Shown here piece by piece: positions 17,206 through 41,642 of a stretch of 64,000 bases of DNA. Source of the stretch: Candidatus Hadarchaeum sp. (lineage in GTDB: Archaea > Hadarchaeota > Hadarchaeia > Hadarchaeales > Hadarchaeaceae); NCBI RefSeq assembly GCF_038871235.1, contig NZ_JAVZIN010000006.1:32001-96000 (forward strand), given 5' to 3'. Made by a program: the position numbers and the translations under genes. The notes beneath the pieces were generated by a model. The model ran no database searches. It was not told the origin of the DNA and saw nothing but the letters and a program-made list of their open reading frames with translations. How positions within the stretch are numbered: position 1 is the stretch's first letter; every line of letters begins with the position of its first letter.

Positions 17206-18594
17206 ATGGCGAGCCTTCTCATCAAAGATGCCAAATATGTGGTGACGGTTGATTCCAAGCGCCGGGTTATTCGCGATGGAGCAGTAGTCATTGATGGAAT
17301 GAAAATAGTCGATGTTGGCAAGTCCTCGGAGCTCAAGCGCAAATACCCGCGAGCCGAGACAATTGATGCCAGAAACAAGATCATTATGCCAGGACTGTTT
17401 GACTGTCATGCCCATTCCTATCAGAACATGATTCGCGGCATGGCCTTTGTGCTGCCGAGGCGACAGCGTGGAGCTTTTCTTCTGGGACCAACGCTGCGTT
17501 TGCAGGGCGTTTACACTCCGGAGGATGCCAAAGCCTCGATGGCACTGAACTGTCTGGAGTACATCAAGTCCGGGGTCATCGGTTTCTGTGATTGGGGAAT
17601 AAACCTGAGGTACAAGATCGACGGTCTCGCCGAGGTAGTTCGTGATTCCGGGATAAGAGGTGTGCTGGGTAAATCAGTCATGGAATTTCCCGATTATGGT
17701 TCATGCAAAAACGTGATTGATAAGGGATTGATCGAGGATAAGGATGAGTGCATTAGGGACACGATAAGGGCGATAAAAAAGTGGCATGGTAAAGCCGATG
17801 GAAGAATTCAGATCTGGTTTGGACCTAGAAGCGTCGGTGCCCTATCAGTGGAAACATACAAGGAGATTGCCCTTTTGGTCAAAAAGTACAAGGTCGGCAT
17901 CACCTACCATCTCGCTGAACTGGGTGAGCTCGACACGGGTTTTATCTGGAACACCTATGGCATGTCGCCGGTGGAATTTATGAAATCGGTTGGCTGGGTC
18001 GGTCCAAACGTGAGCTTCAACCACTGCCTTTACCTAACCGGGATTGACTACAAGATCCTGATGGAAACGGGTACCAACGTCGTTCATTGTCCGGGAACCG
18101 GATTTGACACCCGGGTGCAGGACATGCTCCAGATGGGTATCAATGTGGCCCTCGGCTGCGATGGCGGACATGAGACCAACGACATCTTTTTGGCCATGAA
18201 GCTGGAAAAGGTGCTTCAGAACAGAACCCCGCGTCGGGATCTGACCATCCTATATCCGGAGAAGCTGATTGAGATGGCCACGATCAACGGTGCCAGAGCT
18301 CTGATGTGGGATAAGGAAACGGGATCTATCGAGAAGGGCAAAAAGGCCGACTTGATCTTGGTGGATCTCAACAGGCCGTCGCTGACGCCGATACTGAATC
18401 CCGTTAATGACATCCCCTCCCGCGTCCTCGGTAGCGACGTTGATACCGTCATCGTCAACGGTGAGATTCTGATGGAGAACCGAATCGTGAAGAGCATGGA
18501 TGAGGCCAAGGTTATCGAAGAGGCAAAGAAACGGGCTGAGGAAGTTAGAGAAAGAGCAGGATATGAAATCGAGTGGCACTGGCCCGAGATTTGA
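17206..18594 (+). CDS. Amidohydrolase (MtaD/SsnA/AtzA-like deaminase)
   Basis: DCHAH, HLAE, NHC, LGCDG, GKKADL. Confidence 0.88.
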   Translation: MASLLIKDAKYVVTVDSKRRVIRDGAVVIDGMKIVDVGKSSELKRKYPRAETIDARNKIIMPGLFDCHAHSYQNMIRGMAFVLPRRQRGAFLLGPTLRLQGVYTPEDAKASMALNCLEYIKSGVIGFCDWGINLRYKIDGLAEVVRDSGIRGVLGKSVMEFPDYGSCKNVIDKGLIEDKDECIRDTIRAIKKWHGKADGRIQIWFGPRSVGALSVETYKEIALLVKKYKVGITYHLAELGELDTGFIWNTYGMSPVEFMKSVGWVGPNVSFNHCLYLTGIDYKILMETGTNVVHCPGTGFDTRVQDMLQMGINVALGCDGGHETNDIFLAMKLEKVLQNRTPRRDLTILYPEKLIEMATINGARALMWDKETGSIEKGKKADLILVDLNRPSLTPILNPVNDIPSRVLGSDVDTVIVNGEILMENRIVKSMDEAKVIEEAKKRAEEVRERAGYEIEWHWPEI

Positions 18595-18691
18595 GTAAGA
18601 GCGATTGATATTTTTGGCAGACCAGCAGATTGGCTAAGTTGGTTGGTCCATAAATTATGGAATGTTTTAAAAGAGTTGGGCTCAAAGGGGT

Positions 18692-19867
18692 ATGGAGCTG
18701 AAAAGTATGAGGGACGTAGCCATTATTGGAGCCGGCATGACTAAATTCGGCCGATCTCCCGGCGATCTGATGGAGATTATGGCCGAGGCCTCGTTGCGTG
18801 CAATAAAACATGCCAACGTGGAAAAAGAGGAATTTGACGCCCTGTATGTTTCGAACATGATGGCAGGAGAAACCTCACACCAGACGGCAGTAGCTAGCTC
18901 CTTGGCAGACAGGATTGCCTTAGTACCAGCCGCAGCCGACAGAGTCGAGAATGGGCCTGCGTCGGGAGGTTCCGCGATTAAAAACGCCTTTCTGGCAGTT
19001 GCTTCAGGTTACCACGATTTAGTTCTGGTCACCGGGGGAGAAAAGATGACCACGGCCGACACCGATGTCGTAACCGATCTGGTGGCGACAATGACACACC
19101 CCACGGCTGAATACATCCATGGGGTTACCCTTCCCGCGATGGGAGGAATGCTTACTCGGCTTTACATGGAAAGATACGGTTTAACAGAGAAGCACTTGGC
19201 GATGGTTGCCGTGAAAAATCACGCCAACGCTCTCAAGAATCCTTATGCCCACATCCAGCGGGCCTGCACTATTGAGGGGGCCATGAGCTCAGGAGTTATA
19301 GCCGATCCGCTGCGTCTTTACTATGTTTGCCCAATCAGCGACGGGGCAGCGTCATTGGTGCTATGTCCGCTGGAGAAGGCCAAGAAATATACCGACAAGC
19401 CGGTGAGGATTGCGGGATTTGGTCAGGCAACCGATGTTCAAGCCCTGCAGGAAAGAGACGATCCAACGGTGCTGAAATCCGTTAGGATAGCTGCCCAGAG
19501 AGCTTTCAAGATGGCCGGGGTTACACCTGATGACATCGACGTTGTTGAGTTGCACGATGCCTTTGAGATACTGGAGATAGCCGAGAGCGAGGACATCGGC
19601 TTTTTTGAGAAGGGCAAAGGTCATTTGGCCGTAGAGAAAGGCACCACCGCCCTGGATGGTGATTTGCCCATCAATCCTTCAGGAGGACTAAAGGCGCGGG
19701 GGCATGCGGTTGGTGCTACCGGGGTTGCCCAAGTGGTTGAGCTGGTCTGGCAGCTGCGCGGAGAGGCCGGTGAGCGGCAGGTCAAGGAGCCGAAGAGGGC
19801 CCTGTCTTGCAACTTCGGTGGCTTCGGAAACAACACCGTGATACACATCTTTGAGAGGGGGTGGTGA
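18692..19867 (+). CDS. Thiolase-fold protein (SCP2/archaeal type) lacking the nucleophilic Cys
   Basis: ELHDAF, INPSGGL, GHAVGATG; ENGPASGG in place of ExACASG. Confidence 0.88.
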   Translation: MELKSMRDVAIIGAGMTKFGRSPGDLMEIMAEASLRAIKHANVEKEEFDALYVSNMMAGETSHQTAVASSLADRIALVPAAADRVENGPASGGSAIKNAFLAVASGYHDLVLVTGGEKMTTADTDVVTDLVATMTHPTAEYIHGVTLPAMGGMLTRLYMERYGLTEKHLAMVAVKNHANALKNPYAHIQRACTIEGAMSSGVIADPLRLYYVCPISDGAASLVLCPLEKAKKYTDKPVRIAGFGQATDVQALQERDDPTVLKSVRIAAQRAFKMAGVTPDDIDVVELHDAFEILEIAESEDIGFFEKGKGHLAVEKGTTALDGDLPINPSGGLKARGHAVGATGVAQVVELVWQLRGEAGERQVKEPKRALSCNFGGFGNNTVIHIFERGW

Positions 19868-20211
19868 TGGTGGAGCAAAAGTTTGTAGCTTACAAGTGCC
19901 GGTCGTGTGGCCGAGTGATGAACCCCAAGCATGATCGATGTCTCACCTGCAAAGGTATGGAGTTTGACGAGATTGAGCTGCCCAAGGTTGGGAAGCTCGT
20001 CACTTACACCAAGCTTTATGCATTGCCGCAGGGAATTGAGGCGCTGCCGCCTTTGACACTCGGCATAGTTGATTTCGATGGTGTCAGGGTGCTCGGACAG
20101 CTTACCACCGACGAGCCAGCTATAGGGATGTCGCTGAGGCCCGTCTGGGGAAAGATCAGGAAACTAAATGACAAAGATATTTATGGGTTTAAGTTTGAAC
20201 CTGTAAGCTGA
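19867..20211 (+). CDS. DUF35-type Zn-ribbon/OB-fold protein
   Basis: CRSC...CLTC, GKLVTYT; ATG overlaps the thiolase TGA. Confidence 0.85.
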   Translation: MVEQKFVAYKCRSCGRVMNPKHDRCLTCKGMEFDEIELPKVGKLVTYTKLYALPQGIEALPPLTLGIVDFDGVRVLGQLTTDEPAIGMSLRPVWGKIRKLNDKDIYGFKFEPVS

Positions 20212-20233
20212 GAATAAAAAAGGAGGTAAGATA

Positions 20234-20821
20234 ATGGATTACGACTGGAGCAAAGTGATGAAGCCTTATCCGCCGCGGAGAATAATCCTGCCCAACGGGG
20301 ACGAGATGATAGTGAAGAGCATGGAGAAGAGCGAGATCGAGGAAGTCTGCGATGCATTGATTCCAAATCTGAAGATACACAAGGAATGGTTTGACCTAGT
20401 TACAGCAGAGATGATAACTGAGTTCTATCTCTGGCGTGAGAATAGACCCATGTGGGGTTTGCCAGCTGAGAGTCATTTCAACCTTGTTGGTAGAGTCGAT
20501 GGTGAGGTGGTCGGCGTCACCAACGGTGCCCTGAGAGACCCCAAGACAGGTTGCAGCCTGCACACAACCACGCTGAAACGAGGTCTGCAGATCGGTGCTT
20601 ATCTCTGGCCTTGCAAACTTGAGATGTATTTTGATGTCTTAGGCGTTGATGTGGTGGAGGCAAGTGCGGAGAGCTTGATCGGTGGTCGAAAGCTGTTTCA
20701 GGCCTATGGTTTCACCCCACACCCAGACAAAAAGAGCCACTTTGGTACAATGTTACAAACAATGACAAAACAACAGTGGGACAGGATAAAGGCCGGTAAA
20801 CTTGTAGGCGAGAGGATCTAG
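20234..20821 (+). CDS. Hypothetical protein, possible GNAT-like fold
   Basis: AGGAGGT RBS; LVGRVDGEVVG strand pair and KRGLQIGA resembling the GNAT acetyl-CoA loop; fold is an inference. Confidence 0.6.
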   Translation: MDYDWSKVMKPYPPRRIILPNGDEMIVKSMEKSEIEEVCDALIPNLKIHKEWFDLVTAEMITEFYLWRENRPMWGLPAESHFNLVGRVDGEVVGVTNGALRDPKTGCSLHTTTLKRGLQIGAYLWPCKLEMYFDVLGVDVVEASAESLIGGRKLFQAYGFTPHPDKKSHFGTMLQTMTKQQWDRIKAGKLVGERI

Positions 20822-20929: not shown

Positions 20930-21529
20930 TTATAGATCATTAGGGGAGTTAATGTTGTTGAACGATTTTAGACTAGGGTCAATTTTTTCCAGATCCTCAG
21001 GTGCGATATAGATGACGTCGTCTAGAAGATTGATAGCATCAATCATCCGGAATTTATTCTTTTTTCTTGCCTCAATTATTGCGCCGGTCAGTTTCTTTGT
21101 TCGGTAGACAGCCTGAAGGGGCTCTATGTAGCCATTGGGCCATCTAAGAATAGCTCCATCGTGTCCCCTAGCGCGGAAATACAAAAATTCAACTACCTCT
21201 GGCTTGATCCAAGGACAATCACAGGCGAGGACGGCAACATACTCTGAGCTAACAACGGGGAGCGATGAAAACAAGCCGATCATTGGACCCTCTTCAGAAC
21301 TTTTATCTACCACAACTTTGGCTTCGGGAAATGTCCTCGCGAGATCTTCCTGATATAGTTTGCAGGAGATGATTATTTCACCTGAAAGTTTCTTTATTTT
21401 CTCGAAGACGTGTTTGATCAAGGGTTGTCCATTAACTTCGTAGAAAGCTTTAGGGCAGCCCATTCTTTTGCTGTCGCCACCAGCCAGGATTAAGACGGCA
21501 AATTTTTCCCTGAAACCATAATTGTTCAT
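20930..21529 (-). CDS. mobA: Molybdenum cofactor guanylyltransferase
   Basis: LAGGDSKRMG, GPMIG, ACDCP, EPLQAVY, NINSPNDL. Confidence 0.88.
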   Translation of the reverse strand: MNNYGFREKFAVLILAGGDSKRMGCPKAFYEVNGQPLIKHVFEKIKKLSGEIIISCKLYQEDLARTFPEAKVVVDKSSEEGPMIGLFSSLPVVSSEYVAVLACDCPWIKPEVVEFLYFRARGHDGAILRWPNGYIEPLQAVYRTKKLTGAIIEARKKNKFRMIDAINLLDDVIYIAPEDLEKIDPSLKSFNNINSPNDL

Positions 21530-21690
21530 GCTAACCGATTGGATATTTGTAATGTCTGTTTATGAGTTTAACCGTAAGTTTTCTGATTTATGGCCGCTAT
21601 GGGTCAAATGATACAGATCATGGAATTTCATCAAAACTCTTTTAAAGAATCCATCTTAGGATAATAGGAACAAAATCAGAGGGCGAAAAT

Positions 21691-22959
21691 TTGGAGACCA
21701 TTGAGAAAAAAATCGATGAGGCTAACAGACTGTGTGTGGAAAGAATTATGGAATCACATCCTGTTCTGGTAGACATTGATCACGCGATAAATGTGATCCC
21801 AGGGATGGAAGAACGAATGGTTCTGCACAGCGGCCCCCCGCTTTCCAGAGGCTGGGATGAAATGGTTGGCCCCATGAGGGGTGCCGTTATTGGAGCCATG
21901 ATTTATGAGGGTTGGGCAAAATCGGAGGCTGAAGCAATCGAACTCATCAGAAAAGGTGAAATAAAGTTTGATTCTACCTCCAACCATAGTGCTGCGGCCC
22001 CGATGGCGGGAATAGTGACACCTTCCATGCCCGCTTTCGTGGTCAAGAACAAAACCTATGGCAACTTTGCCTATTGCAATGTCAACGAGGGACTTGGTAA
22101 GGCCCTGAGGTTCGGCGCCAACGACGAGCAGGTGATAGCACGGCTTCACTGGATAGAGAAGACACTGATGCCGGCCCTGAAAGTGGTGTTGAGGGAGGGC
22201 GAAATTGACCTCAAGGAGCTGATCGAAGCCTCACTGCACCGAGGTGATGAATGTCACAACAGAAACAAGACGGTTTCCCTGTTGTTTTTGAGCGAAATTT
22301 TGCCCCGACTCCTTCGTTCCGATTTGGATAGGAATCAGGTTGCTGAGGTGGTCGATTTCATCCGGGGCAACCCTCACTTTTTCCTAAACCTCTCCATCCC
22401 GTCGAGCAAGTCTTCTCTGGACGCGGCCAACAACATTGAGTACAGCACTGTGGTTACCGGATTCTGCACTAACGGCGTCAACTTCGGCATGAGGGTCAGC
22501 GGCATCGGCGACAGGTGGATTACGGCACCATCCATTCACGCCAAGGGAAAGTACTTCAAGGGCTTTAAGGAGGGCGATGACGCTCCGGTGCTGGGTGACT
22601 CATATTACTCCGAACCTGCGGGCATTGGCGGCTTTGCCATGGCGGCAGCTCCGGCGATAGTCAGTTTTATCGGCGGGGAGCCAGACTTGGGAATTAAGAC
22701 CACACTGGAGATGTACCAGATAACGGTGACCGAACACAAGTACTTTAAGATCGCCAATTTAGGATATCGGGGTACTCCGCTAGGCATCGACATCAGAAAG
22801 GTGCTGAGAACTGGAATCTTGCCTGTGATCAACACTGGCATGGCGCATAAGGATCCGGGAATCGGCCAGGTGGGAGCAGGAATAATCAGGGTCCCGATGG
22901 AGCTCTTCAGAAAGGCGCAGATTGAATTCGAAAGAAGATATGGAATAAAAATTGTTTGA
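21691..22959 (+). CDS. DUF1116 (YlbE/AllG-like) protein
   Basis: LHSGPP, PMAG, GDECHNRN, NGVNFG, GDS, INTGMAHKDPGIGQVGAG. Confidence 0.85.
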   Translation: METIEKKIDEANRLCVERIMESHPVLVDIDHAINVIPGMEERMVLHSGPPLSRGWDEMVGPMRGAVIGAMIYEGWAKSEAEAIELIRKGEIKFDSTSNHSAAAPMAGIVTPSMPAFVVKNKTYGNFAYCNVNEGLGKALRFGANDEQVIARLHWIEKTLMPALKVVLREGEIDLKELIEASLHRGDECHNRNKTVSLLFLSEILPRLLRSDLDRNQVAEVVDFIRGNPHFFLNLSIPSSKSSLDAANNIEYSTVVTGFCTNGVNFGMRVSGIGDRWITAPSIHAKGKYFKGFKEGDDAPVLGDSYYSEPAGIGGFAMAAAPAIVSFIGGEPDLGIKTTLEMYQITVTEHKYFKIANLGYRGTPLGIDIRKVLRTGILPVINTGMAHKDPGIGQVGAGIIRVPMELFRKAQIEFERRYGIKIV

Positions 22960-23036
22960 AACTTCATTTGGAAAATCTAGGAATTTTGAAAATGTATATA
23001 AGCACCTCAGGTAAGTTGTATTCAAAAAGTGATTCT

Positions 23037-23801
23037 ATGAAAAAAATGAAAGTGATTGACCTTACTCAACCTTGGGGAATGAACACGCCGCCGTGGCCGG
23101 GAGGAAAAGCGCCAACGATAAGATATGTGAACATGATCTCCACTGATGGCTACAGTCAGCAAGAGATCACCTTTACCACCCACATTGGAACCCACCTCGA
23201 TGGCCCGCTGCACTTTGACCCAAAGGGCAGGGACCTAGCCAGTTTACCTATGGACAAGCTGGTCGGTGAGGGAGTCGTGGTGGATGTCAGCGAGGTTGGC
23301 CCCTTCGGGATTTACACGCCGAAGCACGTGACGAGCAAGGTTGACGTTAAGAAGGGGGACATACTGATTATCCACACCGGTTTCCACAAATACTACGCCA
23401 ACGCTGAGGAGCCAGATGAGGTCGCCTATTTCTACAAGCATCCCGGGCCGCACAGGGAGTTCAGGGACTGGGTGGCGGAGATGAAGTTCAAGTGGATCGG
23501 AGTTGACTGCGGTTCAGCCGATCATCCAATGAACACTGGCCTTCAGAAGCTCAACCCGCTCGTCGCCAAGGAAGCGGAGAAAAAGCTGGGGAAGCCATTG
23601 AGCGAGATCTTCCCTCCAGAGATGGATCACATGATGCACAACACCCTATTCAAGCAACCCCATGAAATAATTCACGTGGAGAACATTGGCGGGGACATCG
23701 ATAAGGTGCTGAACAAAAGGATGATAATTGGGTGCTTCCCGCTCAAGACAATCGGCGGTGAATCCACACCCTGCCGGGTTGTGGCATTCCTTTTTGAGTA
23801 A
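23037..23801 (+). CDS. Cyclase-family metal hydrolase (kynurenine formamidase/isatin hydrolase-like)
   Basis: HIGTHLDGPLH, HVENIGG; start moved to ATG 23037 downstream of a TATA-like TATATAA. Confidence 0.88.
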   Translation: MKKMKVIDLTQPWGMNTPPWPGGKAPTIRYVNMISTDGYSQQEITFTTHIGTHLDGPLHFDPKGRDLASLPMDKLVGEGVVVDVSEVGPFGIYTPKHVTSKVDVKKGDILIIHTGFHKYYANAEEPDEVAYFYKHPGPHREFRDWVAEMKFKWIGVDCGSADHPMNTGLQKLNPLVAKEAEKKLGKPLSEIFPPEMDHMMHNTLFKQPHEIIHVENIGGDIDKVLNKRMIIGCFPLKTIGGESTPCRVVAFLFE

Positions 23802-23811
23802 AAGAAAAGAG

Positions 23812-23846
23812 GTGGCAGCCCGAAGCTGCCACTGTTTTTTATTTTT
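23812..23846. terminator. Bidirectional terminator-like hairpin
   Basis: GTGGCAGC-CCGAA-GCTGCCAC with an A-rich run upstream and T-tracts downstream, between convergent genes. Confidence 0.7.
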
Positions 23847-24226
23847 CAACGCAGAGCGGCGATGCCATCGATCTCGATCAGCAGATCCTCCATAATGAGG
23901 TTCTTGACCGCGATCAGGGTGCTGGCTGGGGGATCCTTCTTAAAGTACTCCGACCTTATCTGCCTGAATTTAGCCAAGTTTTTGATGTCGGTTAGGTAGA
24001 TCCTTATCTGAACGAGGTCGTCGAGGGTTCCACCCTCAGCGGCTAGGATGGTCCGCAGATTCTCGAAAACCTGTCTCACCTGCTTTTCAAAGTCACCCTT
24101 GCCGACAATTTCCCCCTTGGCGTTTTCAGCGATTTGTCCTGAAATAAAGAGAAGGTTGCCCACCCTGATTGCTGGAGAATATCCCGTAGGTTTGGGCAGA
24201 CCTTCCGGAACGACTATTTTTTTCAC
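23846..24226 (-). CDS. RidA (YjgF/YER057c/UK114) family imine deaminase
   Basis: YSPA, FISGQ, QVFENL, PASTL, IEIDGIA. Confidence 0.88.
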   Translation of the reverse strand: MKKIVVPEGLPKPTGYSPAIRVGNLLFISGQIAENAKGEIVGKGDFEKQVRQVFENLRTILAAEGGTLDDLVQIRIYLTDIKNLAKFRQIRSEYFKKDPPASTLIAVKNLIMEDLLIEIDGIAALR

Positions 24227-25933: not shown

Positions 25934-26653
25934 ATGATGCTTAAAGATAGAGTCAGGAGGTTAGCCCTAAAACTGGGGGCTGATTTGGTTGGATTTGGGC
26001 CCGCTGAGGCCATTGAGGAGGCGCCCGCCGGACATAGGGCGCAGGATTTTCTCCCTAGCGCCAAAACCGTCTTTTCAACGGCGGCACGCATAAATTATTC
26101 CGCTGTTGACGGCCTCCCCCTGACAAGACGGGAATATATCAATGCCAATGATAGCTCCCGTGCTCTACTCAACGGTGTCATCTGCGGAATCTCGAGATAT
26201 CTTGAGGAAGAAGGCTATTCTGCGATACCCTTCCTCCAAGGGACAGATCGTAAGGTGTTGATGGGAGACCTTTCCCTGAAACACGCGGCAGTAGTGGCCG
26301 GTCTGGGTGAGTTCGGATTGAACAATCTACTTCTGACACCTCGTTTTGGACCTAGAGTGCTATTGGGTGCCGTGGTCACAGATGCTTTGATTGTTCCAGA
26401 TCCACCACTAAGAGAGCAGCTCTGCGATCTATGTGGGGCTTGCTTGAAAGCCTGCCCTGTTGGTGCGATAAAGGAATTAAAGGATTTTGATAGAAAAAAA
26501 GGTGGAGCCATGGATAAGTACAAATGTTCTCATTATATAAACGAAATTTTGGAGCCAGAGTACGGCCACCACAGCTGCGGCCTTTGTATCAAAGCTTGCC
26601 ACGTTGGAAAAGTGGAAAAGGTGCAAAAAAGTATACAGGCGAAGTTAAAATGA
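25934..26653 (+). CDS. QueG/RdhA-like Fe-S protein (epoxyqueuosine reductase family)
   Basis: GADLVG, KHAAVVAGLGEFG, FGPRV, CDLCGACLKACP, CGLCIKAC. Confidence 0.8.
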   Translation: MMLKDRVRRLALKLGADLVGFGPAEAIEEAPAGHRAQDFLPSAKTVFSTAARINYSAVDGLPLTRREYINANDSSRALLNGVICGISRYLEEEGYSAIPFLQGTDRKVLMGDLSLKHAAVVAGLGEFGLNNLLLTPRFGPRVLLGAVVTDALIVPDPPLREQLCDLCGACLKACPVGAIKELKDFDRKKGGAMDKYKCSHYINEILEPEYGHHSCGLCIKACHVGKVEKVQKSIQAKLK

Positions 26654-34164: not shown

Positions 34165-35171
34165 CGTTGTAGCCTCTTTGATGATGCTACCCCAGCAAGC
34201 AGATATAATATGGTCCAAGTGGTGATCCAGTAAAGGGGCCAAGCAGGCAACTGGTAGGGCTGCCAAGCCGGGGTCGGGATCCACTCTACGTTGAAAGCGG
34301 TCACCATATTTTTGCCGACTTCATGGACGATTTTGAGCAGATCGGTTGTAGTGATTCCCAGTGGCTCATCAAGTCCTGGGGCGGCCCCGAGATCCAAGAC
34401 GTCCAGATCCAAGTTGAGGAAGAGGTGATCAACTCCTGCCCCTGCTTTTTTAATAGCTTCTCCAGTGATAGCTATGATTCCATTTTTTTCTATTTCAGTG
34501 TAAGTATATACAGTAGCTCCCTTCTTACGGTACCATTCCATCTGTTCCCTGAAGTTCCTCGGCCCCCTCATACCGATCTGGATAAAATTTTTCATGTTCA
34601 CTCCATCTAGCTCTGACACACGGGCTACCCAGCAGGCGAGAGACCATTTACTATTTTGGTGAGATTCCATGTTGTCAGCGTGGGCGTCCAGATGGATGAT
34701 GCCTAAATTACCACCAAGCCGGCATATGGATTTTGCAACAAGGTACGGGTGTGCCCCGACTGTCAGCGGGATGCATCCGGCTTCCAAAATTTCGAAAATT
34801 CTCTTCTCCGCAAGTTGAAAGTATTCTTCGATGTCCACCTGGTCTAAGGGATAAAATCCGGTAACGTCGCCGCAATCGACAAGGTTAACCTGGCCGAGGA
34901 CATCCATGTCAAGTTCGGGCAGATACCCTCCATATTTTATAGAGGCCTTTCTCAAGCGCATGGTGTCCATTATATTTACGCCAACTTCCCTACCGACCAG
35001 CATCTCGGCGCCTTGAGATGGCAAGCCTAAAAATGCCGCATCTGCACCCTTCAGCTCTCCCTTCTTCCTTGCTGCTGGAACCCCAAGAAAAGTTGGAACA
35101 TCGCCGTAAATGGTGGGGATGAGCATTTTTTGAAATTTTTCCATGGATTTCCTATACTTGATTTTACTCAC
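34161..35171 (-). CDS. Ureohydrolase (arginase/agmatinase family), divergent
   Basis: PTFLG, DCGD, HLDAHAD, QIGMRG, DLDVLD. Confidence 0.85.
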   Translation of the reverse strand: MSKIKYRKSMEKFQKMLIPTIYGDVPTFLGVPAARKKGELKGADAAFLGLPSQGAEMLVGREVGVNIMDTMRLRKASIKYGGYLPELDMDVLGQVNLVDCGDVTGFYPLDQVDIEEYFQLAEKRIFEILEAGCIPLTVGAHPYLVAKSICRLGGNLGIIHLDAHADNMESHQNSKWSLACWVARVSELDGVNMKNFIQIGMRGPRNFREQMEWYRKKGATVYTYTEIEKNGIIAITGEAIKKAGAGVDHLFLNLDLDVLDLGAAPGLDEPLGITTTDLLKIVHEVGKNMVTAFNVEWIPTPAWQPYQLPAWPLYWITTWTILYLLAGVASSKRLQR

Positions 35172-35275
35172 AAAACCACGCCTTAATTTTGGGCGGTTAT
35201 CATAAAAGTTTTCAGTTTTAAGCCGAATGTTTAAAGATACCTTAGTTAGAGTTAATTCTCAGGAGTGAGATTTTT

Positions 35276-35578
35276 ATGCAACAGATAGAGGTGTCAGTAG
35301 TTTACCTGTCTTTTTTCCAGGAGCTCACAGGGACAAGAGAGGAAAGAGTGAAGGTTCAGAAGGGGATGACGCTAAGAGAGTTTCTGGAACTACTGTGCGT
35401 CAGACACGGTGAAGTCTTTAGAAAAACCATTTTTGATCCGAAGACCGGTCGTGTTTTCAGTCATAACCACATAACTCTGAACGGGCAGCTGGCCCATCTC
35501 TTGGATAAAAACCTCGGAGTTAACCTGAGAGAGGGAGACCGCGTGGTTATAGCCCACGCTGTTTCTGGCGGCGAGTAG
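35276..35578 (+). CDS. MoaD/ThiS ubiquitin-like sulfur carrier ending GGE
   Basis: Beta-grasp pattern, LREGDRV, C-terminus VSGGE*; next to an AOR gene. Confidence 0.82.
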   Translation: MQQIEVSVVYLSFFQELTGTREERVKVQKGMTLREFLELLCVRHGEVFRKTIFDPKTGRVFSHNHITLNGQLAHLLDKNLGVNLREGDRVVIAHAVSGGE

Positions 35579-35585
35579 TCCCGGT

Positions 35586-37511
35586 TCAAAATGGAATTTT
35601 GCCCAGCTTTTCCAGCTCTTCAGCCACATAGTCCAAGGCGAGTTCTTCCAGCTTTTTCCGGGGGATAAAACCAGTTTTCGGATCCCATCCTCTCAGGTTA
35701 TAGTATTCATCTAACATTTTATCCAGTTCTACCACGTGCCCTTTGCTTACACCCTCCGGGGCAGGCGTTTTCGTAAATCTTTCAGGCAGAGTGTCGTCCT
35801 CCTTGCTCAAACCTTCTCGGATATTGAAGGCCCTTTGGAGGTTGACTATCCTCTCGCCAATTCTTCTCAAATCCCCGCCGTTTACCTTCATCCCAGTAGC
35901 CAGCCTCAGGATTTTAGCCATATCTTCAAAATAAATCTGCCCCGTGTACAGCGGCAGGCAGGTTCCGGAGCTTTTGCATAGCGATAAACTGTCGCAGAGG
36001 GCGCAGAGTTCCTCGCCGTCTTTTACTTCGTAGGCCTTGTATTTAGGGCTCAGCGGCCGGGCCATCTCGGGAAGATATTTTTCGCCGAACCTTGCCTTGA
36101 TTGGCTCCTCCCTGCCGAGTTCGTCCAGCAACGGAAAGGCCTTGAGATGATCGCCCCCACGATTGGCAACCGCGTGAGCCAGACCCATAGATTTCTGAGC
36201 CCTGCCATCCTGTGCGGCTATTTCCAGCTTTTTCACGGTCATCAGATATTTTTCCGAGCCACGGCCAATTTTTTGTGCCGCCCGGTAACTGCCCTCGGCT
36301 AGAAGGGCGCCAAATCCTTCCCTATGAGCAATTTTAGGAATCAACTTAATCACTGCCTCGTAGTTACCCCAATTCAGCTCTATGCCATCGGTGTCCTCTT
36401 TGGTGAGAATGCCATTTTCGTAGCATTCCATGGCCCAAGATATAGTTCCTCCAGTGGAGATGGTATCTAAGCCCAGCTCATCGCAAAGCTCGTTAGCATA
36501 GATAATCGCATCCAAGTTTTTGATCCCCAACCTAGCGCCCAATGCTGATAGGGTTTCATACTCTGGCTGTTTACCATATATTCCAGCGTAAGGCGGGTTT
36601 TTGACACGAACCGGTTTTTCACAGGTGGCCCAGCAACCGAACCCGCCCCGATCCTTTATCCGGTACTCCTTTCTGATCCTTTCCCCGCCGATTTCCTTGG
36701 CGAAGGGAAATACACCGGTTTGAAAGTTCCTTACAGGCCACCGAGCGATCTCGTTCATCAGCTCCACAAGAATGGGAGTGCCGAATTTTATTCTGTCGAG
36801 AATGTAAAAGTCGTTCTTATAAACTTCGATAATACTTTTCATGAATTCATAAAACTCTACTGGATTTTCCGTTTTCACATCTTTTGTGCCTCTAACCGCA
36901 ACGGCTTTTAAGTTCTTAGATCCCATCACAGTGCCGAGCCCGCAACGAGCCGCGGCCCTTCTCTGGCTGATAATTGAGGCATACTTGACCAGATTTTCGC
37001 CAGCGGGTCCGCAGCAAGCAACTTGAATTCTGTAGTCACCAAGGTCCTTTCTTATTATCTCCTCAGCTTCGCCGGTGGTCTTGTTCCAGATATCTTCAGC
37101 GTCCATGATCTTGACGTTGTCATCGTCAATCCAGAGATAAACAGGGCTACTGGCTTTCCCTTGAAAGACGATGGCGTCGTAACCAGCAAACTTTAGTTCC
37201 GGACCCCAGTGGCCGCAGCAGCTGGAGTCGCCGTAAATCCCGGTAAGCGGGGACTTGGCGCCGACCTCAAATCTGCAGCTGACTGGCCAGCCCGTGCCGC
37301 AAAGCGGTCCCACGGCAAAGATGAGCCGATTTTCAGGGGAGAGTGGATCGATAGCTGGGCCGACTTCATCCCACAAAATCTTGGTGACGAATCCCGCACC
37401 ACCGAGAAAGCTTTCGGCAAGTCCAGCATCCAAAGGCTGCTTGGTGACCACTTTGTTCGTCAGGTCCACCCGGATTATTTTTCCCCCATAGGCTTTGTAC
37501 TTAAAGCTCAT
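35586..37511 (-). CDS. Tungsten-dependent aldehyde:ferredoxin oxidoreductase family protein
   Basis: KSPLTG, GPAGEN, MGSKNLKAV, PEYET, GLDTISTG, DDTLPERF, EYYNLRGW. Confidence 0.93.
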   Translation of the reverse strand: MSFKYKAYGGKIIRVDLTNKVVTKQPLDAGLAESFLGGAGFVTKILWDEVGPAIDPLSPENRLIFAVGPLCGTGWPVSCRFEVGAKSPLTGIYGDSSCCGHWGPELKFAGYDAIVFQGKASSPVYLWIDDDNVKIMDAEDIWNKTTGEAEEIIRKDLGDYRIQVACCGPAGENLVKYASIISQRRAAARCGLGTVMGSKNLKAVAVRGTKDVKTENPVEFYEFMKSIIEVYKNDFYILDRIKFGTPILVELMNEIARWPVRNFQTGVFPFAKEIGGERIRKEYRIKDRGGFGCWATCEKPVRVKNPPYAGIYGKQPEYETLSALGARLGIKNLDAIIYANELCDELGLDTISTGGTISWAMECYENGILTKEDTDGIELNWGNYEAVIKLIPKIAHREGFGALLAEGSYRAAQKIGRGSEKYLMTVKKLEIAAQDGRAQKSMGLAHAVANRGGDHLKAFPLLDELGREEPIKARFGEKYLPEMARPLSPKYKAYEVKDGEELCALCDSLSLCKSSGTCLPLYTGQIYFEDMAKILRLATGMKVNGGDLRRIGERIVNLQRAFNIREGLSKEDDTLPERFTKTPAPEGVSKGHVVELDKMLDEYYNLRGWDPKTGFIPRKKLEELALDYVAEELEKLGKIPF

Positions 37512-37977
37512 TTTTTTCCTCCGTTATCTCCTTAAGTTTCAACGCACGTTTTATTCCTGTTTCATAGGCAATGTCGTTAGGATCAACAAATCTCAACTTC
37601 CCCGGGGGGCAGTGTTTCACGCAGTTTCCGCACTGATCGCACTTTATCGCTGTTCCCTTGTCCGGGTGAAGCCAGATGGCACCGAAGGGACATTCTTGAA
37701 CACAGACGCCGCAGCCGATACACTTTTGGGAGTCGACCACCCACACCCGGCCTCTTCTTTCTATGGCGTCCACCGGGCAGCTTTGGGCGCAGGGCGCGTT
37801 CTCACATTGCCGGCAGACGATCGGGTTGTCGTAGGCGGCGCCGATTCTGACGACGCGTATTCTGGATTTCTGAGGATTCATCAGACCTTCCTTGATGTAG
37901 CTGCAGGCTATCTCGCAGTTTCTGCATCCGGTGCATTCGAGCGGGTCTATATACAATATTCTCCTTGACATTTTCAA
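37501..37977 (-). CDS. 4Fe-4S dicluster subunit of the AOR-family enzyme
   Basis: CTGCRNCEIAC, CRQC...CAQSCP, CIGCGVCVQECP, CDQC. Confidence 0.9.
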   Translation of the reverse strand: MKMSRRILYIDPLECTGCRNCEIACSYIKEGLMNPQKSRIRVVRIGAAYDNPIVCRQCENAPCAQSCPVDAIERRGRVWVVDSQKCIGCGVCVQECPFGAIWLHPDKGTAIKCDQCGNCVKHCPPGKLRFVDPNDIAYETGIKRALKLKEITEEKNEL

Positions 37978-39057
37978 TCAACTCAAATTTATCGCGTTGA
38001 CTGGGCAAAGCGTGGCGCAGAGACCGCAGCCGAAGCAGGCAGTTTCATCCACCCTCGCCACGCCACCTTGCACTTTTATCGCCGCATAGGCACAAGCCCG
38101 TTGGCAGAGACCGCAACCGTTGCACAGATCGTGATTAATGCTTGGAATTATTCGGGAAAATAACGGTTCTTCATTGAGAAGTTTCAATGATAAGCCTCGA
38201 ATTTCCTCCAAACTATTATAACCAAGCGCTTTGATTACCTCACTAATTTCTTCTACTATTTTTGAGAAAACCCCCAATCCTCTGAGGATTGCCGCGGTGT
38301 GAAGGTGAATGCAGGTGGCTCCCGCCATCAGGAATTCGATTGCGTCCTTACCGTTGCTGATGCCCCCACCCCCGACAACAGGTATTCTTACACTTTTGGC
38401 CATTTCAGCGACGCATCTCAGCGCCAGCGGTTTTATGGCTGGTCCGGAGAGATAGCCGTACCCGAATTTTGAGCCCAGCAATGGTCTGCCCGTCCTCGCG
38501 TCGATGGCCAGCACCGGCCCCAGCGTGTTGATTCCGGAGATATAGTCTGCCCCAGCTCTTTCAATCCCCTTAGCGTATCGCGGGATGTCTGATATATTTG
38601 GGCCAATTTTGACTCCGAGGGGGATGACAACCGCTTCCTTGATTTTGCGGATGTTTTCCTGTAGCTGTTCAAGCGAGGGGTTGCTGATGGGCAATTCCAG
38701 CATGTCGGCGCCGGCCTCTTCCAGAAGCTTGGCCATTCTCACTTCCTCATCAATGTCACCAAGAATGCTGACTATTACCGGCTTCTTTCCCTCTTTGGCG
38801 ATCTTCATCTGTCTGCAAATCTGTTCGGCGCTGAGGGCGGACCAATCGTGATTGATCATGGTACCTCCTTGGAGAGCAATCATGCAAGGTCGGGGGGTAT
38901 CCTCCTCTCTTGGATACACAGTTTTAGCCACGATTGCTCCGATGCCATAATGTTCCGCGGCCCTCTTGATCGCAGGACCATCCTTGCTCAAAGGTCCCGG
39001 TGCCAGAACGGTTGGGAATTCCAGCCTTAGGTCCGCGAGTTTTACCGTAAGATCCAG
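37978..39057 (-). CDS. Dihydroorotate/dihydropyrimidine dehydrogenase (PreA-like) FMN protein with C-terminal 2x[4Fe-4S]
   Basis: AKT, VKIGP, INT, SGPAIKP, GGGI, two CxxCxxCxxxC motifs; family-like N-terminus DLTVKLADL...PGP begins at CTG 39057. Confidence 0.82.
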   Translation of the reverse strand: MDLTVKLADLRLEFPTVLAPGPLSKDGPAIKRAAEHYGIGAIVAKTVYPREEDTPRPCMIALQGGTMINHDWSALSAEQICRQMKIAKEGKKPVIVSILGDIDEEVRMAKLLEEAGADMLELPISNPSLEQLQENIRKIKEAVVIPLGVKIGPNISDIPRYAKGIERAGADYISGINTLGPVLAIDARTGRPLLGSKFGYGYLSGPAIKPLALRCVAEMAKSVRIPVVGGGGISNGKDAIEFLMAGATCIHLHTAAILRGLGVFSKIVEEISEVIKALGYNSLEEIRGLSLKLLNEEPLFSRIIPSINHDLCNGCGLCQRACAYAAIKVQGGVARVDETACFGCGLCATLCPVNAINLS

Positions 39058-39070
39058 CGTTTTTTCACCC

Positions 39071-40462
39071 TCAGCGCTCGGGCAGTGTCCAGACGGGATT
39101 TATCGGCGTTTCGATGGCGCGCCTCTGATACTTCTCTGCTTGGCGCTGTGCTCTTTCGAGCAGTTTTTCCTCATCGACGGTTAGAATCTTTTTGTTGTCC
39201 ACCACAATTTTACCATCCACGATGACGGTATCAACATCAGAACCTCGGCAACTAAAAGCTAAAACTTCAAGCTTGTTCAGAGCCGGAGTCAGTTTTGCCT
39301 TACCAGAAAAATCAACGATAATTATGTCGGCTTTCTTGTTAGGTTCCAAGGATCCGATTTCCTTCTCCCGGCCCAGAACCTTGGCGCCGCCCATAGTGGC
39401 CAGATGGAGGGCTTGTGTAGCTGGCAAGAGCCCGTCGTCGAGGTAGTAAAGACGGAGCATGGCCATCGAGAAGGTCATCAGCTCAAACATGTCATAGATG
39501 TTGACGCCGTCTATACCGAGGCCGACTTTGCCGTTCCTTTTGATCAGCTCCACAGCCGGGGCCAGCCCATTGGCGTAAAAGGCATTACTTTTGATGTTGA
39601 AGGACAGGCCAACGTTGTTTCGCCGCCAGATCTCCAGTTCATTCTTAGAAATGTAGATTCCGTGGGCGGCATCAACGTCCGAACCCAGAAAGCCGATTGA
39701 GTCGAGAAACTCAACTGAGCCACCAACTTGGTATTTCTTTTTTATCATCTCAACCTCATAGGTGCTCTGGGCGATGTGAATCTGGATACCACAGTTGTGC
39801 TTATCAGCTATCTCCCGCGCTTTTTTCAGCGTTTCCGGAGTGCAGGAGAAGCAGGTGTGTACCCCCATCATTCCTTGGACGCGGGCGTCTTTCTTGTAAT
39901 TTCTTTTTTTGATGAAATTTTCATTTTCCTTGAGTCCCATTTTCCCTTTGGCGAGACTTACCCGGTCGGTGGTTTCAAAGGAAAGGAAGGCTCGAATTCC
40001 GGCTTCGTCGCAGGCCCTGCCCGCCGAGTCAAGCGCCCCAGGAAGAAGATTCTGTCCTTCTTGAAGATCCGCGGTGCAGGTAATTCCATTTTTCAGCATC
40101 TCCACCGAGGCGAGGAGGATTCCGGTGTAGACATCCTCCTTGGTGCATGTATCCTCAATTTTAGGCCACCACCAGCGCGTGAGAAGGCTGCCGAAATCAG
40201 AAGCTATCTCTGGTGGTAAAGGGATATTCATGTAACGGGTTAAAGAGTTATACATGTGGTTGTGAGGTGTTACGAAACCGGGCATTATTGCTTTACCCTT
40301 GGCGTCAATAATTTCTTCAGCATGATATTTTTTCTTGATCTCCGAAGTCGTACCCACGGCCAAGATTCGGTTTCCCTCAACGACCAAAGCGCCGTCTTCT
40401 ATAACCCTGTTCATCTGATCCATGGTGACCAAAAATCCATGCTCTATGATGAAATCTGCCAT
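39071..40462 (-). CDS. Amidohydrolase (SsnA/MtaD-like)
   Basis: TPHNH, HIAQS, AAHG, LGIDG, KKADI; start moved to MADFII (40462). Confidence 0.88.
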   Translation of the reverse strand: MADFIIEHGFLVTMDQMNRVIEDGALVVEGNRILAVGTTSEIKKKYHAEEIIDAKGKAIMPGFVTPHNHMYNSLTRYMNIPLPPEIASDFGSLLTRWWWPKIEDTCTKEDVYTGILLASVEMLKNGITCTADLQEGQNLLPGALDSAGRACDEAGIRAFLSFETTDRVSLAKGKMGLKENENFIKKRNYKKDARVQGMMGVHTCFSCTPETLKKAREIADKHNCGIQIHIAQSTYEVEMIKKKYQVGGSVEFLDSIGFLGSDVDAAHGIYISKNELEIWRRNNVGLSFNIKSNAFYANGLAPAVELIKRNGKVGLGIDGVNIYDMFELMTFSMAMLRLYYLDDGLLPATQALHLATMGGAKVLGREKEIGSLEPNKKADIIIVDFSGKAKLTPALNKLEVLAFSCRGSDVDTVIVDGKIVVDNKKILTVDEEKLLERAQRQAEKYQRRAIETPINPVWTLPER

Positions 40463-40604
40463 AGTTCCTGTTGAATATAAGCAAAATTCAATAAAAACTT
40501 TTTGAAAATCAGCATCTATGAATAATTGGTCAGAACCTGTGTTGTATCGAAAGATAGTGTTCAAACAAAAAAGTAAAAAAATCCTCTAGAGGTTAGAATT
40601 TTCT

Positions 40605-41642
40605 CTAGAGGGTGATGCTCTGGACTAGTTCTTTTACATTTATTTTGCCGGATATGATGTCCTGTTTTGCCTGTTCCATTTCATCCAGAACGGTTTGTGG
40701 TATTTTGTCCTTGAGGGCATAGAACGGAGTCAACGTGACACCACCTGTCTTTAGATCAGCCGGGTAAATCGACTTGAATTGACCTGCTTTGATATCGAGC
40801 ATTATTGTCTTGTAGTGTGAGTATGAGTCCCATATTGCGCTGGTCACGATAATGTTGGGGTTGATTGAGTGGGTGTCTCCTTCACAGCCAAAGACATAAG
40901 CCTTACCAGTTTCTTGCGCGGCCATGATGGCTCCCAGCACCGGACCGTCGGTCATGGGGGCGAGAAAGTCCGCACCTGATTCGATCTGCGCCATTGCTGC
41001 TTCCTTACCCAGAGTTGCGTCCATGAAGCTACCGGTGACTGCATAGAGGACGGTAGCGTGCGGGTTCACGCTTAGGACCCCTGCCTTAAACCCTTTAGAC
41101 CATTCGACGATTCCCGGAACTTCAAGTGGACAAAGGGTGCCGACAATATTGGTCTTGGTCATTCTGCCTGCTAGAATTCCAAGCAGGTAGTAGGCCTCTT
41201 CCAAGTATGACCAGACAACCGAAGCATTTGACGGGAAATCCGGAGCCAGCAAAGCCGTGGTGACAAAGTACGAATTGGGGTATTTTTGGGCAGCTTCTCT
41301 AGTGGTGTCAACAAACTGAGCGCCATGTTGGATTATCAGATCATAGCCTTCCGCAGCATATCCGCTTGCAATTCTCACGGCGTCTGGTACCGCAACCTGT
41401 TCCGTGTAGGAGAATTTGTCAGCTACTCCCTCGGCCACCAGCCTCGAAACGGCCTGGTAAGCAGGACCGTTCCAGGTAAGATCGGTTATCACGTCCGGCA
41501 GCAGTAGGGCTATTTTCCACTGCTTGGTCGGTTGCGAAGTTGTGGTAGTAGTGCCTCCGGGCTGGGTTGCAACGTAAGCGGCTGCCACTGCGATAATTGC
41601 TATCACTAAAATAACTCCGGCAATCATTCCAGTTTTTGGCAT
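40605..41642 (-). CDS. BMP-family (nucleoside/purine) ABC substrate-binding protein
   Basis: N-terminal membrane anchor plus Thr linker, DLTWN, GYDLIIQHG, AGRMTKT, GSFMD...GKEAA. Confidence 0.85.
   Translation of the reverse strand: MPKTGMIAGVILVIAIIAVAAAYVATQPGGTTTTTSQPTKQWKIALLLPDVITDLTWNGPAYQAVSRLVAEGVADKFSYTEQVAVPDAVRIASGYAAEGYDLIIQHGAQFVDTTREAAQKYPNSYFVTTALLAPDFPSNASVVWSYLEEAYYLLGILAGRMTKTNIVGTLCPLEVPGIVEWSKGFKAGVLSVNPHATVLYAVTGSFMDATLGKEAAMAQIESGADFLAPMTDGPVLGAIMAAQETGKAYVFGCEGDTHSINPNIIVTSAIWDSYSHYKTIMLDIKAGQFKSIYPADLKTGGVTLTPFYALKDKIPQTVLDEMEQAKQDIISGKINVKELVQSITL

Follow-up and report, generated by a model that had tools for sequence, protein, structure and literature searches.

A two-module gene island in Candidatus Hadarchaeum as a candidate system for anaerobic breakdown of a purine-like N-heterocycle

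Can a crowd of hydrolase and redox genes in an archaeal genome be read as one catabolic system, and if so, for which compound? The question is raised by a 64,000-nucleotide stretch of DNA from Candidatus Hadarchaeum sp., an archaeon of hot springs (contig NZ_JAVZIN010000006.1, positions 32,001 to 96,000), called the window below. Positions 17206-41642 of the window hold six amidohydrolase-superfamily genes together with a ureohydrolase, a molybdenum-type and a tungsten-type oxidoreductase and their iron-sulphur (FeS) partners. The original prediction, made from the letters alone, described this region as a connected toolkit for the degradation of N-heterocycles that matches no canonical pathway. 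The reading favoured here, by a modest degree, is that the region is an island of two modules that catabolises a purine-like N-heterocycle (bicyclic, with oxo or amino substituents) anaerobically.

The gene set was established from a map of open reading frames (ORFs) combined with Pfam, NCBIfam and PDB sequence searches (Table 1). All families listed in the original prediction were found where it had placed them. Its list was incomplete, as it omitted a thiolase with a DUF35 protein, a 195-amino-acid ORF, a QueG- or reductive-dehalogenase-like FeS protein and DUF2284. The archaeal host is confirmed by relatives of the enamidase-like gene (Ena) at 96-98% identity in metagenome-assembled genomes of Ca. 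Hadarchaeum or Hadesarchaea. Almost all island enzymes miss the NCBIfam equivalog or subfamily cut-offs. The single pass is the hydantoinase-like gene with TIGR00857, a generic dihydroorotase subfamily-domain model (296.9 against 279.05). Of the 20 PF01979 matches in the 1205-kb genome, six fall inside the 24.4-kb island, where about 0.4 would be expected (Poisson P about 4e-6, by arithmetic made for this report).

Whether such genes belong together can be judged from their company in other organisms. For this purpose 79 loci around enamidase-like genes, one genome per species, were compared with all island proteins. Loci of Hadarchaeum are syntenic with the island, as expected. Ca. Hecatella orcuttiae carries two clusters. 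The first corresponds to the left half and contains orthologs of AllG (58% identity), RidA (59%), A3 (54%), A2 (82%), Ena (64%) and the molybdenum enzyme MoPGD (58%). Here AllG adjoins RidA, A3 lies beside A2 and Ena, a three-subunit xanthine dehydrogenase (XDH) lies in between, and MoPGD is found about 8 kb from Ena. The second cluster corresponds to the right half in shuffled order. It is headed by a BMP protein (30%), a permease and an ATPase, and further contains a TRZ gene, the PreA-like gene (57%) beside A4 (70%), the hydantoinase (55%), the ureohydrolase (47%), the FeS subunit (58%) and the aldehyde:ferredoxin oxidoreductase (AOR, 70%), which is followed by a MoaD homolog (43%). The Hecatella orthologs of the right half are closer to the island genes than any own-genome paralog is (36-50% at most; AOR paralogs at most 48%).

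A third example comes from an uncultured bacterium. One 15.3-kb contig (L057/L167) encodes, in order, a PAS-LuxR regulator, Ena (49%), a PF04199 cyclase, DUF2284 (34-36%), RidA, A2 (65%), a MobA-like protein (28%), a second regulator, an MtmB-like protein, a HyuA-like protein and A4 (49%). Thus 14 of the 23 island families recur in the two Hecatella clusters, and eight of the 23 on a single bacterial contig that draws from both halves. RidA adjoins A2 or AllG in loci L007, L008 and L057, and a second bacterium has an A2 homolog at 55% identity. The island is a real accessory neighbourhood and not chance proximity. In this respect the original prediction of a connected toolkit was borne out, and the homologs are not scattered: their co-occurrence is conserved in Hecatella and in a bacterium.

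Some genes of the region stand apart from this pattern. The thiolase, the DUF35 protein and the 195-amino-acid ORF do not recur in the Hecatella or bacterial clusters, and are probably interposed genes outside the system. Among the fetched loci, the QueG-like protein is kept only in those of Hadarchaeum. The membership of A1, which lay outside the flanks fetched for relatives, is uncertain.

The distribution of the island genes was followed in 66 Hadarchaeota genomes, eight from the Hadarchaeum genus and the others from 19 other genera. Orthologs of A2 (at least 87% identity) occur in seven of the eight genus genomes and those of Ena (at least 84%) in six; neither was found elsewhere in the sample, where the best match to A2 is 39%. 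A4 orthologs (at least 77%) occur in seven genus genomes, with one 62% match in another genus. AllG is more widespread (29 of the 66 genomes), its close copies being mostly in the Hadarchaeum genus. The A2 family was found in one of 401 sampled genomes of Hecatella's phylum, with at most three candidates scored per genome, and in one of the 79 genomes sampled from the bacterium's phylum. A single core gene of the flanks was compared, and it is 51% identical to its Hecatella counterpart. Taken with this value, the sporadic distribution of A2, Ena and A4 argues that the modules spread horizontally as sets, and Ca. Hadarchaeum probably acquired the island in this way, judging from these sequence comparisons. 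Both flank homologs lie on one contig in one other genus only, about 9 kb apart as against 25 kb here; this spacing is too weak to serve as evidence of an insertion site.

The known system closest to the right half is the reductive pathway for uric acid (2,8-dioxopurine), which is found in anaerobic bacteria (the ygeW-xdhD cluster of E. coli, the UacX/UacY variant of C. difficile, and C. sporogenes) and was published in 2025 (10.1101/2025.05.19.654654; PMC12507026; 10.1101/2025.04.24.650524). According to the first of these reports, XdhD forms 2,8-dioxopurine, which is then dearomatised by YgfK, or by UacX in C. difficile. UacX is a PF01180 enzyme with flavin mononucleotide (FMN) and no flavin adenine dinucleotide (FAD) domain, for which ferredoxin is proposed as the electron donor. 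Opening of the pyrimidine ring then falls to SsnA and that of the hydantoin to HyuA, and the final steps to pyruvate are carried out by YgeW/YqeA or UacY, followed by YgeY and YgeX. In genome neighbourhoods, SsnA co-localises with XdhD, YgfK or UacX, and HyuA; the SsnA survey described there covers bacterial phyla only (10.1101/2025.05.19.654654).

The island resembles this pathway in that a PF01180 reductase without an FAD domain, the SsnA-like A4 and a HyuA-like hydantoinase are encoded side by side. The PreA-like reductase gene is directly downstream of A4 and the hydantoinase gene is in the next operon, a grouping that is also seen in Hecatella. Molybdenum cofactor genes are nearby, and the lifestyle is anaerobic. 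Unlike the urate clusters, the island lacks XdhD and has a molybdenum enzyme of the bis-pyranopterin guanine dinucleotide (bis-PGD) type instead. It also contains an arginase-fold ureohydrolase, DUF2284, an AOR with a polyferredoxin, and MoaD, and its host is an archaeon. The claim that the island matches no canonical pathway and is undescribed could not be kept as it stood, since the trio of PF01180 reductase, SsnA-like and HyuA-like genes makes up the core of that reductive pathway, and a closer trio exists on another contig of the genome, C5. There, the region C5:33334-39373 holds a hydantoinase-like gene, the genome's top match to E. coli SsnA (34991-36337, 30%, 202 bits; TIGR03314 hit at 35000-36316), and then PreA-like, YqeB-like and MocA-like genes. 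Because the best match of E. coli SsnA is this gene, a canonical route for urate, should the genome have one, is more probably encoded on C5. By its sequences the island is classified here as a divergent paralog of the reductive urate core and not as a member of it. What is undescribed is a set of its parts: the HxxQ and HxxV amidohydrolase subfamilies, the ureohydrolase, the AOR/FeS pair, and the operon of an enamidase-like gene with a Mo-bisPGD enzyme.

The two amidohydrolase subfamilies were recognised from an alignment of the four TRZ genes (A1 to A4) with E. coli GuaD and SsnA. The HxH motif and the later His and Asp are present in all four. At the HxxE position, A1 reads HLAE and A3 HSSE, while A2 reads HAGV and A4 HIAQ; E. 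coli SsnA has HAAE. The original prediction had spoken of altered active sites in several members, which is true of A2 and A4, two of the four TRZ genes, and not of A1 and A3, in which HxxE is intact. In A2, Val replaces the catalytic Glu, and the consensus of the A2 family is HAAV (22 sequences). HxxQ occurs in each of the 26 A4 homologs with at least 43% identity, and also in the partial homolog P0281 (47%); more distant homologs have HxxE. Both changes appear from these alignments to be family traits that define distinct subfamilies. With a TIGR03314 score below the cut-off and with HxxQ, A4 is outside the SsnA family (TIGR03314/IPR017700), and its neighbourhood is of the SsnA type. The starts of A2 and A4 were set by database representatives of 492 and 463 amino acids.

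The reductase next to A4 combines a PF01180 domain (residues 3-252) with two Fer4 motifs (2x[4Fe-4S], residues 282-336) in a protein of 337-360 amino acids overall, and has no FAD or NAD(P)H domain. Its frame is open for 23 codons further upstream, and this stretch is conserved at the protein level. At the homologous start (39058-39060, minus strand), the window and two related Hadarchaeum genomes have ACG, and a third relative has ATG. A GGTGA-like ribosome-binding motif precedes the ACG. These comparisons suggest that ACG serves as a non-canonical start codon of the gene.

The architecture is also that of PydAc from Clostridium chromiireducens, a ferredoxin-dependent dihydropyrimidine dehydrogenase that is described as PF01180 plus Fer4 where it is cited in the urate report (10.1101/2025.05.19.654654). 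Both pair an FMN domain of the DHO_dh fold with ferredoxin-type clusters, have no NAD(P)H/FAD subunit and are near a cyclic amidohydrolase; the likeness is one of architecture. Where the reductive pyrimidine pathway has PydB and PydC, the island encodes a ureohydrolase and two hydrolases that act on rings.

The adjoining AOR is assigned to the AOR family by its AFOR_N and AFOR_C domains. Like the tungsten enzymes of P. furiosus (1aor) and Aromatoleum (AorABC, 8c0z, 2.7e-109), it has both AOR domains and a polyferredoxin gene immediately upstream; 16 Cys of the polyferredoxin are invariant in six orthologs. Unlike AorABC, the island enzyme has no FAD subunit and has the PreA-like reductase as a neighbour. 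It is embedded in a cluster of heterocycle hydrolases, and this embedding is kept in Hecatella.

The remaining enzymes of the right half are a hydantoinase and a ureohydrolase. The hydantoinase is the genome's top match to E. coli HyuA (36%, 239 bits) and shows HxH, Lys, His, His and Asp, which are taken to be the ligands of the binuclear site. Its extent is placed at 32806-34164 because its start overlaps the ureohydrolase stop as ATGA. The ureohydrolase has PDB relatives among agmatinases, guanidinobutyrase and 3-guanidinopropionase. Its six Mn ligands are presumably H141, D162/H164/D166 (DAHAD) and D255/D257 (LDLD), as read from the motif pattern. The genes for BMP, A4, the PreA-like reductase, the FeS subunit and AOR are contiguous on the minus strand.

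From these parts, a scheme can be proposed. It starts from the observed gene content, operon structure, motif changes, co-occurrence and restricted distribution. Every reaction in it is a prediction, as are the substrate and the coupling of the AOR to the reductase. In module R (32174-41642), the BMP-type protein would import a base or nucleoside, and the PreA/UacX-like enzyme, a ferredoxin-type FMN/[4Fe-4S] reductase, would dearomatise the ring. The SsnA-like A4 would then open the six-membered ring, and the HyuA-like hydantoinase the five-membered or dihydro ring that is left. A guanidino- or ureido-type side group could be released as urea by the arginase-fold ureohydrolase. The tungsten AOR with its polyferredoxin may feed the reductase low-potential electrons from an aldehyde, perhaps one derived from the pathway, or may recycle them. 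Support for this link comes from the retention of AOR in the Hecatella cluster, from two more neighbourhoods of PreA-like, AOR and FeS genes, and from an AOR set on contig C16.

Module L (20930-32151) would contribute deaminations by A3 and perhaps A1, and a redox step, either hydroxylation or dehydroxylation, by the Mo/W-bisPGD enzyme and its FeS subunit. Additional amide or ring hydrolyses may be carried out by Ena, A2 and the cyclase, and enamine or imine hydrolysis by RidA. AllG would possibly transfer a carbamoyl group. The substrate perhaps differs from 2,8-dioxopurine by an amino (guanidine-forming) group, because the arginase-fold enzyme is conserved and the Glu of A4 has changed to Gln.

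Several features of the left half can be compared with known enzymes. Over its full length, AllG shares 41% identity with E. coli YlbE, and the genome has a carbamate kinase. Both are points of likeness to AllFGH, the oxamate carbamoyltransferase with which E. coli degrades allantoin anaerobically; the function name is taken from Pfam and RefSeq annotation. Unlike AllFGH, the operon partner of the island AllG is a cyclase-family hydrolase, whose gene overlaps that of AllG by four nucleotides. The sequence of this cyclase holds HxGTHxDxPxH, which is taken to be the motif of its family. FdrA and carbamate kinase had been reported as lying outside the window along with XDH, and all three do: the carbamate kinase is at C3:24022-24987, and the only FdrA-like match at C3:46428-47594 (29%). 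A YlbF-like match occurs only weakly, on C1 (E 8e-8). Neither of the latter two is near AllG. The MoPGD protein has no Tat leader, its N-terminus opens with the Cys motif of an Fe4S4 cluster, and its closest PDB match is acetylene hydratase (2e7z, 7e-108).

The enamidase-like gene of module L is transcribed divergently from A3. Across 20 homologs of its product, the HxH, His and Asp columns do not vary. Like the E. barkeri nicotinate cluster, the island joins an enamidase that matches 2vun over its full length with a molybdenum enzyme. Unlike that cluster, the molybdenum partner is of the bis-PGD (DMSO reductase) family and not an XDH, and the other families of the cluster are absent. Clustering of the 79 neighbourhoods gave two bacterial contexts. 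One is of the nicotinate type, with XDH subunits, a 3-hydroxyisobutyrate-dehydrogenase-like gene, a B12-binding mutase and AA_synth. The other contains a TRZ amidohydrolase (37 loci), a creatininase-family gene (30), an ABC ATPase (36), BMP (16), PfkB and PNP. By a rule made for this report, 19 loci were labelled as nicotinate-type and 37 as second-type. Ndh subunits, Hgd, the B12 mutase and AA_synth, the families of the 19 nicotinate-type neighbourhoods, occur neither in the island nor in the Hadarchaeum loci.

A tree of 75 Ena sequences (73 of them locus-derived) was built with MAFFT and FastTree, with ORFs below 330 amino acids left out and a midpoint root. The island Ena, the Hecatella protein and a second Hadarchaeum paralog form one clade (support 0.96), which is sister (0.87) to a clade of nicotinate-type and XDH-linked sequences. 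The second-type sequences form a separate clade (0.91), and this includes the genome's other Ena copy, found on C2 beside creatininase-like and BMP genes. Among the literature on enamidase, none concerning archaea was found, and among the matches listed for Hadarchaeota, judged from titles and abstract openings, no paper deals with purine or amidohydrolase metabolism.

A number of these results speak against a single route for a purine-like compound. Ena is nearer to the enamidases of nicotinate clusters than to those of nucleoside-type clusters, which leaves room for a pyridine-type substrate of module L. The two modules are on different contigs in Hecatella, so that they may have separate substrates. 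No homolog of YgeX was found in the genome, and the island has no equivalent of YgeW/YqeA, YgeY or UacY. A4 is only the second-best SsnA match of the genome (TIGR03314 about 300, compared with 387.9 for the C5 gene, both below the cut-off of 455.5), and it lacks the HxxE Glu that E. coli SsnA keeps. The AllF (FdrA) and AllH (YlbF) partners are not adjacent to AllG. Arginase-fold enzymes normally cleave guanidino and not ureido groups, which makes a poor fit to urate itself.

Three other explanations have to be weighed. The substrate could be a pyridine or pyrimidine, and the island the archaeal counterpart of either nicotinate fermentation or the reductive pyrimidine route. The Mo-bisPGD enzyme would hydroxylate the ring, the PreA-like protein would reduce it, and Ena or the hydantoinase would open it. 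The ureohydrolase would then split urea from a guanidino acid, and AOR would oxidise the semialdehyde that results. This would explain the full-length match of Ena to E. barkeri enamidase 2vun (1.1e-105) and the position of its clade beside the one with nicotinate-type clusters (0.87). Guanidinobutyrase and 3-guanidinopropionase are among the PDB relatives of the ureohydrolase, PF01180 plus Fer4 is the architecture of PydAc too, and a semialdehyde product would presumably provide AOR with its substrate. However, the other nicotinate-cluster families (Ndh, Hgd, B12 mutase, AA_synth) are not in the island, and two ring hydrolases near one reductase (A4 and the hydantoinase) suit a bicyclic substrate better, as with SsnA and HyuA. 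The three or four deaminase-type genes and the nucleoside-type BMP protein also point to nucleobases, and a pyridine or pyrimidine is held to be an unlikely substrate.

Equally unlikely is a patchwork of independent small operons, for salvage, detoxification or the scavenging of damaged or modified bases and guanidino compounds, with no single pathway. The region is divided into at least six transcription units that alternate between the strands, unrelated thiolase and DUF35 genes lie inside it, and the Hecatella halves are separated. Proximity is also less informative here than in most genomes, given 20 PF01979, seven AOR-type and five XDH-type genes genome-wide. But the same sets of families are found together in Hecatella and in a bacterium, whose contig unites Ena, the cyclase, DUF2284, RidA and A2 with the HyuA-like protein and A4, and the orthologs in Hecatella are closer than own-genome paralogs, which indicates transfer or retention as sets. 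It is very improbable that the genes serve housekeeping, as PyrC and PyrD, a SpeB agmatinase, a DadD-type deaminase of 5'-methylthioadenosine or 5'-deoxyadenosine, and molybdenum cofactor biosynthesis. Such names (dihydroorotase, dihydroorotate dehydrogenase, agmatinase, 5'-deoxyadenosine deaminase) are among the best NCBIfam matches, but all of these matches are below the equivalog cut-offs. Other candidates for the same roles exist elsewhere in the genome, including an agmatinase-like gene on C8 and, on C13, a PyrD-like pair. None of the other 19 genera of the phylum has an ortholog of A2 or Ena, and outside the genus A4 has a single match, at 62%.

The favoured reading, anaerobic catabolism of a purine-like N-heterocycle, can be extended to a more specific form, which is put forward tentatively and is thought improbable as a whole. 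The island, like its counterparts in Hecatella and the bacterium, would then encode a self-contained, previously undescribed reductive route for an amino-substituted purine-like base, such as guanine, 8-oxoguanine, 2-amino-8-oxopurine or a pterin. The tungsten AOR and its polyferredoxin would hand electrons from an aldehyde of the pathway to the ring reductase, which would balance the fermentation in redox terms. A2 (HxxV) and A4 (HxxQ) would be ring-cleaving enzymes of new subfamilies with the deaminase fold and not deaminases, the guanidino group left by ring opening would be released as urea by the arginase-fold enzyme, and the whole set would move horizontally between thermophilic archaea and bacteria.

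Reductive anaerobic purine breakdown was not elucidated until 2025, and then in bacteria alone. If the reading is true, the pathway would gain an archaeal, tungsten-linked variant and with it a range that includes hot, anoxic habitats, in which the remains of nucleic acids are a likely source of food. The island offers a concrete test of whether AORs can be wired to ring reductases, and two amidohydrolase subfamilies with changed catalytic residues would join the enzymes worth characterising. The paralog load of Hadarchaeum (about 20 amidohydrolase matches, seven AOR-type and five XDH-type genes) would also partly gain a function. In a genome of 1.2 Mb, this load suggests a life largely on N-heterocycles.

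Table 1. Genes of the island and two permease genes outside it, with window positions and main sequence matches
Feature	Position	Strand	Evidence and remarks
A1, TRZ/ATZ-family amidohydrolase	17206..18594	+	PF01979 162 bits; NCBIfam matches all below cut-off; HxxE intact (HLAE)
Thiolase, DUF35 OB-fold protein and 195-amino-acid ORF without family	18692..20821	+	Pfam
MobA-like molybdenum cofactor guanylyltransferase	20930..21529	-	PF12804 103 bits; NF001457 121 against cut-off 164
AllG/DUF1116 protein	21691..22959	+	PF06545 272.8 bits (cut-off 27); PDB 3clq 3e-112
Cyclase / kynurenine-formamidase-like metal hydrolase	22956..23801	+	PF04199 119 bits; PDB 4co9 1.6e-10
RidA-family enamine/imine deaminase	23846..24226	-	PF01042 109.5 bits; downstream of A2
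A2, TRZ/ATZ-fold amidohydrolase	24263..25741 (ORF to 25789)	-	Distinct subfamily; likely start M17, 492 amino acids
QueG / reductive-dehalogenase-like 2x[4Fe-4S] protein	25934..26653	+	Pfam Fer4; TIGR02486 57.8 and TIGR00276 49.2 bits, both below cut-off
A3, TRZ/ATZ deaminase-type amidohydrolase	26718..28085	-	PF01979 242 bits; top NCBIfam 390 and 382 bits, below cut-off; HSSE intact
Ena, enamidase-like cyclic amidohydrolase	28198..29448	+	PDB 2vun, E 1.1e-105, residues 9-388 of 416; first gene of Ena-MoPGD-FeS operon
MoPGD, cytoplasmic Mo/W-bis-PGD oxidoreductase	29504..31648	+	PF00384, PF01568, PF04879
DmsB-like 4x[4Fe-4S] electron-transfer subunit	31651..32151	+	PF13247 92 bits; TIGR02951 139 against cut-off 214
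DUF2284, Cys-rich predicted metal-binding protein	32174..32755	-	PF10050 147.9 bits; last gene of ureohydrolase-hydantoinase operon
HyuA-like hydantoinase/dihydropyrimidinase	32806..34164 (ORF to 34284)	-	TIGR02033 382.8 against cut-off 393.25
Arginase-fold ureohydrolase (agmatinase / guanidino-acid hydrolase type)	34161..35171	-	PF00491 121 bits
MoaD/ThiS-fold small protein beside AOR	35276..35578	+	PF02597; TIGR01687 44.9 against cut-off 49.5
Tungsten-type AOR family protein	35586..37511	-	PF01314 445.2 bits, PF02730 268.5 bits; PDB 1aor 6.5e-147
Polyferredoxin-type FeS subunit	37501..37977	-	Fer4 families; directly upstream of AOR
PreA/UacX/PydAc-like FMN (DHO_dh) reductase	37978..39060 (ORF to 38991)	-	PF01180 116.6 bits and Fer4; NF006183 171 against cut-off 335
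A4, SsnA-like amidohydrolase	39071..40462 (ORF to 40564)	-	TIGR03314 about 300 (300.1-300.2) against cut-off 455.5; likely start gives 463 amino acids
BMP/PnrA-family substrate-binding protein	40605..41642	-	PF02608 137 bits; first gene of minus-strand operon
Two BPD_transp_2 permease genes	49381..51498	+	PF02653 135 and 134 bits (C6:81687-83426); outside 17206-41642

The two permeases at the end of the table might serve the BMP protein as membrane partners. Further along the window, PreT, which the original prediction had called absent, has a counterpart outside the island: a GltD/PreT-like FAD/FeS oxidoreductase gene at 59353-60795 (33-35% identical to the C-terminal parts of YgfK and YgfT). 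It is followed by a 281-amino-acid ORF (59353-61643 in all, minus strand), with which it probably forms a pair of the NfnAB/SudAB type. A tRNA-Gln(CTG) of 97 nucleotides, likely with an intron, lies 3.6 kb to the left of the island (13465-13561). Rfam at gathering thresholds gave no match and left this tRNA unreported as well.

In one metatranscriptome (a single RNA library, with DNA carry-over uncontrolled), short contigs map to the cyclase, A2, Ena, MoPGD, DUF2284/hydantoinase and BMP genes. Bins without cover carry no meaning in this mapping, and the contigs on these six genes give weak support for expression.

Relatives of single island genes were met in several other settings. The MtmB-family gene of the bacterial contig (L057/L167, 9904-11376), a non-methanogen example, is directly upstream of the HyuA-like and A4-like genes. 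Within the Hadarchaeum genus, locus L008 (genome G038/G068, contig C27) shows another arrangement. A2 (87%) and a hydantoinase-like gene come first, then an Ena paralog (55%), RidA, the cyclase and AllG (81%), and last a second AllG (48%) beside an FdrA-like gene; strong TRZ matches number 14 in the genome concerned. One sequence, P0170, has the Pfam domains of both AllG and an amidohydrolase and was considered as a fusion of A2 and AllG. It contains long stretches of the frameshift type, and was taken as adjacency only. A scan of metagenomes with the A2-family alignment returned generic TRZ/ATZ relatives (25-35% identical), together with one 47% match to a C-terminal fragment (L122), and the patterns were the common HxH and GxD motifs.

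The second-type enamidase context corresponds to a widespread bacterial cluster (about 37 loci, in Oscillospiraceae, Blautia, Chloroflexota and Spirochaetota) of enamidase-like, TRZ and creatininase-family genes with PfkB, PNP and a BMP-type ABC transporter. A small version of the Ena-like/TRZ/creatininase cluster is found in the Hadarchaeum genome at C2:34490-37902. The cluster might be what is called the 'xanthinase pathway'.

The genome as a whole (1.205 Mb, 94.75% complete) is rich in related families. It contains five XDH-family large subunits, of which the one most like E. coli XdhD (39%) is at C11:8484-10811, and five hydantoinase-like ORFs. AOR is the best match for seven ORFs, and the PreA-like protein for about nine, some of them weak. 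More neighbourhoods of PreA-like, AOR and FeS genes are at C6:13545-18976 (13-18 kb upstream of the window start) and C3:106733-112705 (the set itself at 109215-112705). Contig C16:2785-10941 brings together AOR, FeS, MoaD, M20 peptidase, RidA and TRZ genes. Finally, an unusual combination is found near a contig end at C8:72027-75219, where genes for XDH-type FAD and 2Fe-2S subunits are followed by an AOR-family gene (587 amino acids) and not by a MoCoBD large subunit.

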